DNA of 64,000 bases, from the NCBI GenBank assembly GCA_034226945.1, contig CP120454.1, forward strand, positions 1,364,001 through 1,428,000. The letters are read 5' to 3'. The notes below the pieces were generated by a model. The model had not been told where the DNA came from and did not search any database. It was given only the letters and a program-made list of their open reading frames with translations. Both the position numbers and the translations under genes were made by a program. Positions 47,814-56,710 of the stretch are shown piece by piece (positions within the stretch are counted from its first letter, which is position 1; every line of letters starts with the position of its first letter). This DNA is from Picochlorum sp. SENEW3. Its lineage: Eukaryota.

Positions 47814-50800
47814 TTATTTTCCCCTCTTCATCTGATGCGCAACGAGCCTTGCATAGCTGCCTCCTTTGCTCATCAGCTCATCGTGGCTGCCCTGCTCCAC
47901 AATGTGGCCCTTGTACACAACAGCGATGTTGTCCGCGTCGCGGATCGTCGACAGGCGGTGCGCCACGATGATGGTGGTGCGACCAACCATCAGACGGTCC
48001 AGAGCATCTTGAACAACACGCTCGCTCTCCGCATCCAAGGCTGACGTGGCCTCGTCCAGAAGGAGCACCTTGGGGTCCTTCACAATGGCGCGAGCGATAG
48101 CGATGCGCTGCTTCTGGCCCCCGCTCAACTGGATGCACCCCTCCCCGAGCATGGTGCTGTACCCCTCGGGCAGAGCCTGGATGAACTGGTGGGCGTTGGC
48201 CGCACGAGCAGCTTCCTCAACCTGCTCCAGGCTCGCCTCGGGGCGGCCGTATCGAATGTTGTCTGCTACGCTCATGTTGAACAGCACCGGCTCCTGGCTC
48301 ACCAGACCCACGTTGGACCGCAGCCAGTGCAGGTTGAGGTCGCGGATGTCTTGGCCGTCCAGAAGGACGCCCCCATCCACGGGGTCGTAAAACCTCTCAA
48401 TCAGGGACACCACCGTGGATTTCCCACTTCCTGACTCGCCCACCAGTGCCATGGTCTTGCCAGCCTCAACGGACAGGTTGAACTTCTGGAACACGGGTGC
48501 ATCCGGTCTCTGGGGGTAGGCAAACGTCACATCATGGAGCTCAATATTACCTGTGCATTCCATCGGCCTAACTCCTTCTTCGGTGAATGCATCAATTGCT
48601 GTTTTCCTATCAACTATTGCAAACACACGCTTGGTTGCTGCCCCTCCTTTGGCAACATCTGGGAAATTAATTTGTGCCTGTCCAAGTCCAAAGGCAGCAA
48701 GGAATACAGCAAAGAATGCTTTCAGGGCTTCTTCAAAAGTCGAATAACCTCTCGAGATTTCCAACCCCATGTACCAAAATGCCAATGCATATATGCTAAA
48801 CAGGACAAATTGAGAAAATCCAAGGCCTAAACCACCAAAATTGGCTTGTTTATATGATCGCTTGGTTGGCACTGACAACAGCCTTGCATATAGATCTGAC
48901 ACCTGATCCTCCATGCCAAATGCTGATACGGTTCGTATCGAGGTAACAGCTTCAGAAGCAGTTTGATTTGCTCCAGCGAACATCTCCTCTTCATCACCAG
49001 ATTGTGCGACCATGACCTTTGTTTGGATTGTGGCTGCAACCCCCAAGATGGGAATCATAGCCATGACCACCAACATCATCCTCCAACTATTGATTCCGGC
49101 GATGACCAGCCCAGCTACCATGGTAACAAGGTTCTGAACAACCAACCCCATGGTATCTCCAAACTGACCACGGATGGCCGTGGCATCTGAAGACAACTTA
49201 CTCGTCAAGGCACCAGATGAATTGGCATCTCGATCAAAATACGCAACTTCTTGTTTCAACAAGGCTTCCATCATCATGACTCGAGCTCTTTGGGCTAAAC
49301 GTTGTCCCATGAAGTTGAAACTGTAGGACTGGATAAAGGCCCCCACTAAAGCAGCAAAACCCATTCCCATGAACACCAAGGACCACTTGCGCGTATTGCT
49401 TGTGATATAATCCTTCTCTTCCTGTGTCATCTCCCCTTCACCCTCTCCGTAACCGTAGAATCCTCCGATCAGAGATGCCAGAGCGAGAGCGAAAATTGGG
49501 AACAACAATCCCATGATGGCTGATCCGACCACACCAGAGAGCAATGCTGGCAATTCTGGTTTATTCAGCTGGGCGATTCGCTTCATTCCTACCTTGACCT
49601 TTTCTTCTTCTGGGTACAACGTTTTCTTTGTTTTACTGACCATTTCCTCAGCCTGCTTACCGTCTTTCATGCTCTTCTTCTTTCTCAAGAATGTAAAGCC
49701 TCTGTATCCTTGCATCACCCCTTTCACTGGTGCAGCCTGCAACACATAACTCAAGCATATTATTAGACGACCATCATATCATTTCTTGAATTAAAATGAA
49801 AGGACGCACCGTTGGAGCCATACCACCGGAATCATAAGCCACCCTCTCGGCATAGTCTTTGGATTCTTTGACAAAGCCCTCAGAAGGCCGTTCGATGTCG
49901 AATGACCCCGAGCGTCTACCAAAGATTGGACGGGACTCATCTAAAGAAATCCTTCTTTCGTACTCGTCGTCTTCACCAGATGACTGTTGCATCTGAACGA
50001 GGGTAGCGTACGCACCGCCCTTCTCCAGAAGCTCACTGTGGGTCCCAAGCTCAATCACATTACCGCGACGGACCACAGCAATAGCATCAGCACCGCGGAT
50101 CGTCGACAGACGATGAGCGACAACAACTGTCGTGCGACCAACCATCAAACGGTCCAAAGCATCCTGCACAACACGCTCGCTCTCCGCGTCAAGGGCTGAC
50201 GTGGCCTCGTCAAGAAGCAGAACACTCGGATTCTTCAGGATCGCACGAGCGATCGCGATGCGCTGCTTCTGCCCACCACTCATTTGAACACCCTTCTCAC
50301 CAACCTGCGTGTCGTACCCATCAGGAAGAGCGCTGATGAACTTGTGAGCATTTGCAGACTTGGCAGCAGCAACAACCTCCTCCTCGCTCGCGCCAGGCTT
50401 GCCAAACAGAATGTTCTCGCGGATCGTCGTCGCGAACAGCGTCGGCTCCTGGCTCACCAAGCCCACCTGGGAGCGAAGCCAAGGCAGGCTGAGGTCGCTC
50501 AGCCGGTGGCCGTCCAGAGTCACGCACCCAGAGGTGGGGTCGTAGAAACGCTCAATCAGGGACACGGCTGTGGACTTGCCGCTCCCAGACTCCCCGACAA
50601 GGGCCACCGTCTGCCCCGCACGCACCGTCAGGTTGAAGTTGTCAAACACCACCTTGTCAGGACGAGACGGGTACGCAAAGCACACATTCTGAAACTCAAT
50701 CTCACCAGTCACAGAGTCAGGCTCCTCACCTCCAGCTGCAATATTGATAGTTGGCTCTCTTGCCAAGATACCAAACACTCTTCTACCTGATACCTTTCCA

Positions 50801-51849
50801 GCTTGGAAATATTGAATATTAGGAGCAGCCTGACCAAGCGCAATTCCTCCAATGAGCGCAGAAAAGAGCACGTTCAATACTTGCCCTGGAGTGTACTCCC
50901 CCGCGGTAATCCGTGTCCCTCCATACCACATTGCCAGAGCATATGCGCAAAACGCAATGCAATTCGTCAATCCCAATGTTGTTCCACTCAAATATCCTTG
51001 ATTAATGCCGACCTTTGTCGACGGCTGCAAACACTCATCGTACTCTTTCACTGTTCTCGACTCCCCATTGAATGCATAAATTGTACGAATGTTTCCCAAC
51101 GCCTGTTGTGCCAAGGAATTTGCCGCAGCATATGCTCTATTCAACGTGGTTGTCAGTTTTCCTGTCACATAGGTGAGCAAAAATCCAGCAACACCCAGAA
51201 TAGGAAGCAGCGACAAAATCACTAGTGTCATTGACCAGCCACGGACAAATGCAATGATGATTCCAGACAAACATGTCGCCATGAAGAACAGAAACATCGC
51301 CACCTTCTCCCCTATACCCTTCTGAATAGCGTTACAATCTTCATTCAAACCTTGCAGTAGAAATCCAGAGGTGCCCTCGGTATCGAAATACTCAATATCC
51401 TGATGCAGCACCTTTCTCAAGTAGATGGACCTGATTCTGTTTGTCTGCCTCACAGATGTCACAGACCAGAAAAATGACTGCGCGTACGCCCCCACGAATG
51501 TAACCAAACCAATATACACAAATGCTGGAACAGCATCATTGACAATCTCGGTCAATGATTTACCCCCTTCCACATTCGTCTGGTTATACCCAATGTCGTT
51601 CATGATGTTTCCCAAGAAGATGGCAAACACAGGCAATCCAGCCCCATTGACTATAGCCCCCAGACTCCCCAACAACATGAAAATAATATCCACCTTATCA
51701 GCATATCGAAACAAAGAAAAGTATGAAATGGCAGGATACTGCTCCCCTTGATCCTTTTTGGTGTCCTTGGTTGTGGTTTCCTCCTCCACCACAGCAGCAA
51801 CCATCTCAGTACCTTCCTCCTTCGTCTTTTCTATTACTGTATCAGTCAT
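47814..51849 (-). CDS. Full-length ABCB (MDR/P-glycoprotein) transporter, copy A
   Basis: TMD-NBD-TMD-NBD with GESGSGKS, (M/L)[24 protein letters not shown]; 73-nt intron 49737-49809 joins ORFs 49774-51849 and 47814-49754. Confidence 0.95.
47831..48551. repeat. 721-nt direct repeat, copy 1 (NBD2 of ABCB copy A); partner 52352-53072
   Basis: No mismatch found on manual comparison; alternative-frame ORF translations are identical. Confidence 0.95.
49987..50759. repeat. 773-nt direct repeat, copy 1 (NBD1 of ABCB copy A); partner 54512-55284
   Basis: Three synonymous mismatches found on manual comparison. Confidence 0.95.
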
Positions 51850-55300: not shown

Positions 55301-56710
55301 AAGTCTCGATGCAGACAGTCGTCCTGACTGGAAAGCACTCCAATTGGGCACTGCTTGTCCTAATGCAAACCCACCAATCAGGGCTGAAAGCAGTACATTC
55401 ACCACATCCCCTCCGGTGTATCCATTTGGACCAACTTGTGTGGCGCCATACCACATTGCCAAGGCATATCCACAGTATGCCGTGCACATGGTCATTCCAA
55501 TCGTCAGTCCATTAAATATTCCCTGCTTGGTGCCGACCTGTTCAGGGAATTTCAATGCCTCATCATATGCACTGATCGTTCGCTCCTGCCCATTGAACGC
55601 AAAAACTGTTCTTATGCTTCTAAGAGCTTGTTCAGCAATCGAACTCGCACCAGAGTCCGCTTTACTCGATTTGGCATTTATGCGTGCAACAGCAGAACTT
55701 GCAAAATACCCTGTAATAACCAGCACAGGCATGAATGCCAGCATGACAAGCGTCATATCCCATCCTTTGGTAAATGCAATAACAATACCAGATATGGCTG
55801 TCGACATGAAGAACAGAAACATGGACAGTTTTTCCCCAACTGCTTTTTGCACTTTTTGGCAGTCATCTGTAAGACCCTGCATGAGAACACCAGACGTCCC
55901 ACTCGTATCAAAGTATGCAATATCCTGCCCCAAGACTTTCCTGAGGTATTTTTCCCTCAACCTATTTGCCTGTCTGACCGAGCTATATCCCAGGAAGTAT
56001 ACTTGCAGGAATGCAGCAACCATGCCTCCAACACCCAAATACATAAATTTGGGAACAGTATTCTTGACACTTGCACTCAAAGCATCAGGATCTTGCCTGA
56101 TGTAATAATTGATTGCGATATCATCCAATATATCGCCGAATATGATGGTGAATACGGGGAAAACTACTCCATTTCCCAATGCACCAATGATGCCAAGGAT
56201 TTGAGCAACCACATCAAACCTATCCATGTGCTCGTACAAGCGATAGAAAGGCACTGGCTCAATATCATCGTCCTCTTCTTTCTCTTCATCTTCTGGCCTT
56301 TGGAACAATCGCCACCTACGTCGATGAGAGCGGGAGTCTTGATTTTGCTCGTGTTGGACAATGCTCTTGTCATCATTCTTTCCGTCCACACTGCTGGACT
56401 GTTTACTATTCGGGCTGATATCCTTTCCACTCTCTTGATCATCTACAAGAGAAGGAATATCACCCGCATTCGTCTCTTGAGCAGCAGTATCCCGACCTCC
56501 ATTCTGATGTGAAACCTCCAACACCTGCTCTGCTCGTTCTATAGCACTGCCAACAACCACGCTGACAAAGTGATGGCTCGGCCCTGGCGCCATGTCCTTT
56601 TGCTGATGTCGTGCTTTATCAGATAATCCAGGACTGTACACTTCTATCGGAGATCCGAGAGATCCGTCCAAAACACCGCTATCAATAGTGTCGAGGTCAG
56701 CAGCCATCAT
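52332..56710 (-). CDS. Full-length ABCB (MDR/P-glycoprotein) transporter, copy B, with long N-terminal extension
   Basis: Same architecture; 74-nt intron 53655-53728 joins LLTQ to NTVTLVAG. Confidence 0.95.
52352..53072. repeat. 721-nt direct repeat, copy 2 (NBD2 of ABCB copy B)
   Basis: Matches 47831-48551. Confidence 0.95.
54512..55284. repeat. 773-nt direct repeat, copy 2 (NBD1 of ABCB copy B)
   Basis: Matches 49987-50759 with three substitutions. Confidence 0.95.

Follow-up and report, generated by a model that had tools for sequence, protein, structure and literature searches.

The stretch of DNA analysed here, referred to as the window, comprises 64,000 nt from Picochlorum sp. SENEW3 (contig CP120454.1, positions 1,364,001 to 1,428,000) and contains two ABC transporter genes, designated A and B, arranged in tandem and in the same orientation, both on the minus strand. 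This work concerns their nucleotide-binding domains (NBDs), which are nearly identical in DNA, whereas their transmembrane domains (TMDs) are strongly diverged. Gene A spans window positions 47814-51849, with exons 51849..49810 and 49736..47814, and codes for 1320 aa after splicing; gene B spans 52332-56710, with exons 56710..53729 and 53654..52332, and codes for 1434 aa. An intergenic spacer of 482 nt (51850..52331) separates the stop codon of gene B from the start of gene A.

Exon 1 of gene A (49810..51849) codes for the N-terminus, TMD1, NBD1 and the start of the linker (Pfam ABC_membrane, 3.2e-59; ABC_tran, 2.9e-35), and is followed by a 73-nt GT..AG intron situated in the linker (49737..49809). 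Exon 2 (47814..49736), delimited by a splice acceptor and an open reading frame, contains the end of the linker, TMD2, NBD2 and the stop codon at 47814-47816 (ABC_membrane, 1.5e-47; ABC_tran, 8.4e-34). In gene B, exon 1 (53729..56710) codes for a long N-terminal extension, TMD1, NBD1, a long linker and the first part of TMD2 (ABC_membrane, 1.7e-77; ABC_tran, 3.2e-35), whereas exon 2 (52332..53654) contains the remainder of TMD2, NBD2 and the stop codon (ABC_tran, 6e-34; ABC_membrane, 4.3e-23); the 74-nt GT..AG intron between them (53655..53728) lies inside TMD2. These splice junctions are shared with proteins from Picochlorum sp. BPE23, namely P0152 and P0153 for gene A, and P0005 and P0155 for gene B.

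The Pfam domains ABC_membrane (PF00664) and ABC_tran (PF00005) were found above their curated cut-offs in all four exon translations, giving in both proteins the order TMD-NBD-TMD-NBD on a single polypeptide. The best named relatives of A and B belong to the ABCB subfamily and come from Trebouxiophyceae and land plants, with names such as "ABC transporter B family member" and "subfamily B (MDR/TAP)" in green algae and plants. Reading the translations by eye, we found the Walker A, the Q-loop, the signature, the Walker B with its catalytic Glu and the H-loop intact in both NBDs. Genes A and B are thus predicted, from their sequence, to be full-length exporter genes of the ABCB type (MDR/P-glycoprotein-type, type IV).

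Both proteins are contained letter for letter in P0157, a 2752-aa protein of Picochlorum sp. SENEW3 annotated as "ABC transporter B family member 4". This is a fused B+A model that lacks the last 10 codons and the stop of gene B and runs into the residues HSEVKFET upstream of the ATG of gene A (window 51874-52364). A GT at around 52364 and an AG at around 51875 are indeed present, but the implied intron of ca. 490 nt is far longer than the 73-74 nt of the introns of these genes. In Picochlorum sp. BPE23 the pair is annotated as separate adjacent genes in two records (M9434_004206/004205 and M9435_003784/003783). We found two TGTAA motifs downstream of gene A and none in the spacer between B and A, which is compatible with either joint or separate transcripts.

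Identical domains in diverged genes

The NBD2 blocks of gene A (47831..48551) and gene B (52352..53072), both on the minus strand, show no mismatch over 721 nt, and the NBD1 blocks (49987..50759 in gene A and 54512..55284 in gene B, also on the minus strand) differ at three of 773 positions (50044, 50278 and 50287), all of them synonymous. Identity is lost abruptly beyond the block edges, falling to nearly random on the 3′ sides, where the linker or the C-terminal tail begins, and to about 60-75 % on the TMD sides. Both blocks have their 3′ edge where the NBD fold ends (...LVQMQ and ...LVAHQ), the two positions being homologous. At the protein level, both NBDs of A and B are 100 % identical, whereas identity is 48 % in TMD1 (324 columns) and 55 % in TMD2 (339 columns), and the termini and linkers are barely alignable. 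No further copies of the NBD1 or the NBD2 block were found within the 64-kb window.

The contrast extends to silent sites. In sliding 40-codon windows (Nei-Gojobori), the proportion of synonymous differences (pS) was 0-0.07 within the blocks and 0.50-0.98 outside of them, so that synonymous divergence (dS) is close to zero in the NBDs and saturated in the TMDs. The same codon was used at 484 of 487 shared degenerate amino acids in the NBDs, as opposed to 146 of 358 elsewhere (Fisher p 2.5e-96), and the longest identical run between A and B was 721 nt, when the maximum in 2000 shuffles of the site order was 46. Because of these codon counts and the length of this run, constraint at the protein level is insufficient to explain the pattern. 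All the descriptive claims of an earlier note on this DNA were thus recovered: our recounts gave the same numbers of mismatches in both blocks, the abrupt edges and the divergence of TMDs, linkers and termini are as it described them, the introns do occupy different positions, and the sliding-window comparison of silent sites that it had proposed turned out as expected under gene conversion.

The possibility of a recent conversion between NBD1 and NBD2 within the genes of the window was rejected, the two domains being ca. 73 % identical in DNA with a longest exact match of 20 nt.

Read-derived contigs

We examined the blocks in Logan contigs, built from the reads of four public runs and aligned in all four cases to gene A alone; run X1 is from a culture, X3 is a metagenome from a different study, and X8 has low cover with holes. 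In X1, the NBD2 block appears as a single contig of exactly 721 nt with a depth of 111, the depth of its flanking contigs being 60.7 and 58.4. Contigs from X1 and X3 end at 47860, 48522, 50016 and 50730, which are the block edges ±29 nt, the positions at which contigs should break if a de Bruijn graph meets a repeat with two contexts. The second context is that of gene B: a joint between 52340 and 47831, whose 11 intervening letters match window 52341-52351, links the NBD2 block to the gene B flank in X1, X3 and X8, and the loose contig ends at 49987 and 50759 correspond to window 54482-54511 and to 55285 onward, i.e., to the flanks of gene B.

The block contigs of X3, with depths of 104.4 and 90.9 against 51-57 for the flanks, show five and four differences from the window, all synonymous, with no alternative letter seen. 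Since single letters are present at about twice the flank depth, both copies carry the silent changes proper to that strain. The five variants cluster at 48120-48147 and might be a micro-tract copied from NBD1, with which, however, only three of the five letters agree. The earlier note had asked for copy-specific variants to be sought in reads spanning the blocks; in contigs from two independent studies, each block behaves as one two-context repeat, and no copy-specific variant was seen in NBD2.

One contig of X3, with a depth of 52.4, skips 329 nt in TMD1 of gene A (50944-51274), its shorter side having only 24 letters; such short-sided joints in metagenomes often derive from other organisms.

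Relatives and domain trees

Protein searches with the TMD1 sequences of both genes, and subsequent look-ups of protein clusters, yielded A-type and B-type proteins from several Picochlorum-like lineages. Lineage L1 unites the window with BPE23 and with a 560-kb ENA contig; L2 consists of two contigs from JGI (5454 and 8950 nt) and one from ENA (7805 nt); L3 consists of three ENA contigs (552, 22 and 69 kb) and one from JGI (190 kb); and L4 and L5 are represented by one fragment each.

In the TMD trees, the A-type rows from Picochlorum form a single clade (TMD1, eight rows, support 100/99; TMD2, six rows, 100/100), whereas the B-type rows group with Nannochloris-like proteins (support 100/99 and 96/93). 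Because of this placement, which is found in both TMD trees, the split between A and B predates the divergence of the Nannochloris-like relatives, in agreement with the old duplication presumed in the earlier note. In the NBD trees, on the contrary, the A and B rows of each lineage cluster with one another, in L1, L2 and L3 alike. In the approximately unbiased (AU) test, forcing an A-type clade of seven rows upon the NBD1 tree cost 170.7 log-likelihood units (p-AU 4e-52; 31 rows, after dropping three rows with frameshifted tails or no NBD). For NBD2, tested with 20 of 25 rows because the test on the full set, with identical rows on both sides, is uninformative, a forced A-type clade cost 58.0 units (p 1.7e-4) and a forced B-type clade 51.5 units (p 7.3e-4). 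Separate trees for the two kinds of domains therefore group NBDs by lineage and TMDs by paralog, as domain-restricted conversion had been predicted to do, and NBD clades by paralog are rejected.

The NBDs of L2 and L3 have diverged by ca. 20 % in protein from those of the window. Judging from the trees, homogenisation is old and recurrent, and has taken place in at least three Picochlorum lineages. The placement of two further A-type proteins from ENA also hints at NBD conversion in relatives: NBD2 of P0128 groups with the Nannochloris-like B-type set (97/99), and NBD1 of P0148 groups with P0019 (100/98). The idea that homogenised NBDs evolve faster than TMDs was unsupported, because raw between-lineage identities are similar and the spread is no different in other algal pairs.

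Close strains and base composition

Comparison of the window with BPE23 shows differences between strains that are common to both paralogs. At site 80 of NBD2, the two window copies have N and the four BPE23 copies have H, a pattern that is robust. At sites 106 and 151 of NBD1, three of the four BPE23 copies have S and H, and the fourth has T and Q, like both window copies. The BPE23 NBDs also hold residues specific to a paralog or a haplotype, such as A/V at site 28 and N/S at site 233, and the D/E alternative at site 224 of NBD2 is swapped between paralogs across the two BPE23 records.

The GC content at third codon positions (GC3) was 0.65 in the NBD1 block and 0.76 in the NBD2 block, compared to 0.44-0.48 in the rest of both genes, a contrast that is compatible with GC-biased conversion. 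The contrast is small in the GC-rich lineage L2, with 0.90-0.94 in the NBDs and 0.87 elsewhere.

Possible chimeric and contracted forms

Three loci with L2 DNA (L001, L002 and L003) were confirmed among 493 pattern matches. The last 135 nt of the metagenome contig L002, situated after an A-type TMD1, are the same as the NBD1 start that follows the B-type TMD1 on the same contig, with an abrupt edge, and identity begins here ca. 24 codons later than in the window. This difference in the 5′ edge suggests stochastic tract ends, and not a fixed cassette boundary. The first 12 nt of contig L001 are the end of an NBD2 block, and L003 starts at the beginning of an NBD2 block and ends within NBD1; these ends are the breaks expected from identical repeats in short-read assemblies.

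The ortholog of gene A in L2 (L001, 251-4360) is an uninterrupted frame of 1346 codons without an intron in the linker. L001 has 62 % GC and a GC3 of ca. 0.9, compared to 47 % GC in the window, so that these sister lineages differ strongly in composition and in introns.

A B-type TMD1 is joined to an A-type TMD2 in L002, P0006 and P0166. In L002 (2722-7329 and 7549-8950), a B-type TMD1 and NBD1 are followed by an A-type linker, TMD2 and NBD2, then by the spacer and an A-type TMD1, and the chimeric arrangement of L2 occurs in two independent assemblies (JGI and ENA). It corresponds exactly to the other path that a pair of interleaved identical repeats would permit, and may be either a mis-join or real. 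No B-type TMD2 of L2 turned up, although no search was aimed at one.

Run X9 contains a 1691-nt contig (window 47217-48674) that comes from the 3′ flank of gene A, crosses NBD2 and enters a B-type TMD2, FLAAFSTAQS being encoded by its loose end. This contig stems either from an allele that is contracted or chimeric or from a path across the repeat; its depth is 6x, and contigs with an A-type TMD2 are present as well in this run.

Three further models, P0145, P0161 and P0165, are half the usual size, with NBD1 jumping to the tail of NBD2. In L001, NBD1 and NBD2 (within 1553-2167 and 3683-4297) share an exact stretch of 123 nt, and are 76 % identical overall. The half-size models jump at this shared stretch, whereas the longest exact match between NBD1 and NBD2 in the genes of the window is the 20 nt mentioned above. 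These genes, like the chimeras and the junction in X9, may be either assembler paths or real recombinants. Gene models from other genomes are also defective at this locus. The model for gene A of Picochlorum renovo (P0144) is a patchwork of 515 aa with gaps inside NBD1 that ends after this domain, and several other A-type models (424-636 aa) end in or near NBD1. In many genomes, assembly or gene prediction appears to suffer from the repeat.

A broader proposal, which we find doubtful, is that the NBD blocks, beyond being homogenised passively, might act as portable homology arms by which whole membrane modules are swapped, deleted or recombined. Real chimeric (P0006, P0166, L002), contracted (X9) and half-size genes would then exist in natural populations of these algae, the half-size genes arising through the 123-nt tract of L2, and the four NBDs would have formed a single conversion network since before the split between Picochlorum and the Nannochloris-like algae.

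Recurrent conversion as the probable explanation, and the alternatives

We attribute the pattern to recurrent ectopic (interlocus) gene conversion confined to the NBDs of an old A/B duplication, a reading to which we assign a probability of roughly 0.88. The sequence pattern itself, its presence in read-derived contigs from independent samples and the conflict between domain trees are observed directly. Ongoing conversion restricted to these domains had been proposed in the earlier note, and silent-site divergence, trees and contigs all speak for it.

Several points weigh against this reading. The read evidence from all four runs consists of contigs and not of raw or long reads, and contigs lose rare variants, while their depth does not equal copy number. 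A 193-nt contig from X1, with a depth of 52, combines the TMD1-side flank of gene B (55285-55311) with an NBD1 start that shows five differences and a 38-nt skip (50623 to 50662), and may correspond to a copy-specific variant or allele of B, to a third partial copy or to a graph artefact; it covers window 50554-50759, in addition to a contig of depth 114 for the same stretch. The clades tested were named after quick trees, which makes the AU p-values post hoc, and the relatives are mostly proteins from assemblies that were possibly mis-phased or mis-joined at the repeats. By the same token, the swap at site 224 could be a phasing error of the BPE23 assemblies, and the raised GC3 of the NBDs could instead reflect stronger codon bias at conserved residues.

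Among the alternatives, an artefact of assembly or polishing, by which truly different NBDs were collapsed to one sequence, deserves attention in that identical repeats of 0.7 kb are a classic site of collapse, the models of relatives at this locus are often faulty (P0006 and P0166 chimeric, P0145 and P0161 half-size, P0144 truncated and P0157 fused) and the odd contig of X1 carries a gene B flank together with five differences. We nevertheless consider it very unlikely: in X1 the NBD2 block is one unbranched contig of 721 nt at ca. twice the flank depth, with the same breakpoints in X3; both flank contexts join the same block letters; the picture is the same in the window, in the two records of BPE23 and in the assemblies of L2 and L3; and collapse requires near-identical copies, when the unconverted sequence next to the blocks is only about 55-75 % identical. 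The zero to three differences found in the window would, taken alone, prove only that the last events were recent, and could equally result from two conversions or replacements in the ancestry of this strain, with no sustained concerted evolution. Such a one-off origin is very unlikely, because the NBDs of A and B also pair within L2 and within L3, at ca. 20 % protein divergence from those of the window, and because strain-level differences are common to both paralogs in BPE23 and in X3; additionally, NBD1 has three differences and NBD2 has none, implying separate events.

Purifying selection together with codon bias, without any conversion, can practically be dismissed, as the earlier note had anticipated. 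No part of ABC proteins is more conserved than the NBDs, and the GC3 of the blocks is high, but 484 of 487 codons are identical in the NBDs, compared with 146 of 358 in the remainder of these genes, and NBD1 and NBD2 of one gene are only ca. 73 % identical in DNA. Besides, NBDs differ by ca. 20 % in protein between Picochlorum lineages and are, therefore, free to change. A more subtle alternative accepts conversion but would have its restriction to the NBDs, and the identity of these, maintained by selection for a common ATPase module, be it through a shared regulator or partner or through dosage. It would account for the homogenisation of both NBD pairs across several lineages and for the 3′ block edges lying at the homologous end of the NBD fold. 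These edges, however, coincide with the loss of alignable sequence, the 5′ edge varies between lineages (by ca. 24 codons in L002), which fits stochastic tract ends better, and BPE23 tolerates NBD differences (site 28 A/V and site 233 N/S). We thus consider that such selection is an unlikely cause of the pattern.

We infer as follows how the NBDs would recombine, with a GC bias, and why conversion would be restricted to these domains. After A and B had arisen by an old duplication, their NBD1 and NBD2 segments would have been repeatedly overwritten between the genes. A break or lesion in one NBD block would be repaired by homologous recombination using as a template the paralogous block 4.5 kb away, and the tract would end where homology fails, one limit being the diverged TMD and the opposite one the linker or C-terminal tail, which can no longer be aligned. 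The conserved NBDs would be similar enough for recombination to continue, whereas the TMDs would have escaped from it. TMDs, linkers and termini would go on diverging, likely aided by divergent selection on substrate or regulatory specificity. Repeated conversion would hold synonymous divergence near zero, GC-biased repair would probably lift the GC3 of the blocks, and occasional crossovers within the identical blocks may give rise to contracted or chimeric genes. Since homology-limited conversion and divergent selection on the TMDs would explain the pattern, no benefit of having identical NBDs is needed.

Neighbouring genes

The genes around the pair are ordinary nuclear genes, namely two LHC (chlorophyll a/b-binding) genes and those for an ARMT1-like phosphatase, an FkbM-type methyltransferase and a RabGAP. 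The LHC genes are divergently placed paralogs, 49 % identical, situated at 45114-45812 on the minus strand and 46870-47592 on the plus strand, and contain a 70-nt inverted repeat (45629-45698 / 47071-47140). Contigs from all four runs depart from the window sequence on both sides of 47476-47517, within the LHC gene; this 42-nt piece is therefore common to another locus and is possibly another small conversion tract.

Significance and comparison with known systems

The locus is a natural experiment on the modularity of ABC transporters, in which one pair of ATPase engines, with 497 identical residues, drives two sets of membrane domains that are only about half identical; the coupling interface between NBDs and TMDs must therefore tolerate divergence. 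It also bears on classification, since ABC families are commonly classified by NBD trees, and such a tree would here wrongly give recent, lineage-specific duplications of a much older pair. Identical blocks of 0.7 kb damage assemblies and annotations, as exemplified by the fused 2752-aa protein, the truncated models and the chimeric and half-size genes from metagenomes, which is a warning for users of Picochlorum genomes. With population data, the locus would yield the rate of ectopic conversion, the tract length and the GC bias in a green alga.

Genes A and B have the same (ABC_membrane-ABC_tran) x2 order as the full ABCB transporters of plants and green algae. Gene B differs from the usual ABCB only by its long N-terminal extension and longer linker, and the proteins are otherwise unremarkable.

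The closest known case, as far as the available portions of the literature go, is the pair ABC11-ABC1 of Candida krusei (Pichia kudriavzevii), which, like A and B, consists of tandem, co-oriented ABC transporter paralogs under recurrent ectopic conversion. Lamping et al. 2017 (Genetics 205:1619) reportedly found the differences between ABC11 and ABC1 to be limited to a small number of short stretches of the transmembrane spans. These are PDR pump genes, 98 % identical through recurrent ectopic gene conversion, and ectopic recombination also generates contracted chimeras and expanded arrays in them (PMC6053246). ABC11-ABC1 are ABCG/PDR genes of a yeast and are alike over the whole gene, whereas A and B are ABCB genes of a green alga in which only the two NBDs are homogenised, with TMDs that are 48-55 % identical and saturated dS.

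The Hsp70 gene pairs SSB1/SSB2 of yeast and HSPA1A/B of mammals underwent independent, repeated conversions with sharp boundaries and GC bias (PMC3879978). They resemble A and B in this repeated conversion with sharp physical boundaries, although they are not ABC transporters, and their boundaries are those of the whole coding region, whereas those of A and B are single domains inside a gene. Apart from entries in reference lists, the only pertinent content of PMC4583173, PMC2984421, PMC8544900 and PMC4358917 was a general remark that tandem ABC genes of Tetrahymena may have undergone concerted evolution. Our literature searches, within the parts of the sources available, returned no description of NBD-restricted conversion in ABCB genes, nor of this Picochlorum locus. 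The process, concerted evolution, is therefore a known one; what is new is its confinement to both ATPase domains of an old tandem pair of ABCB genes, and its persistence across a clade of green algae.

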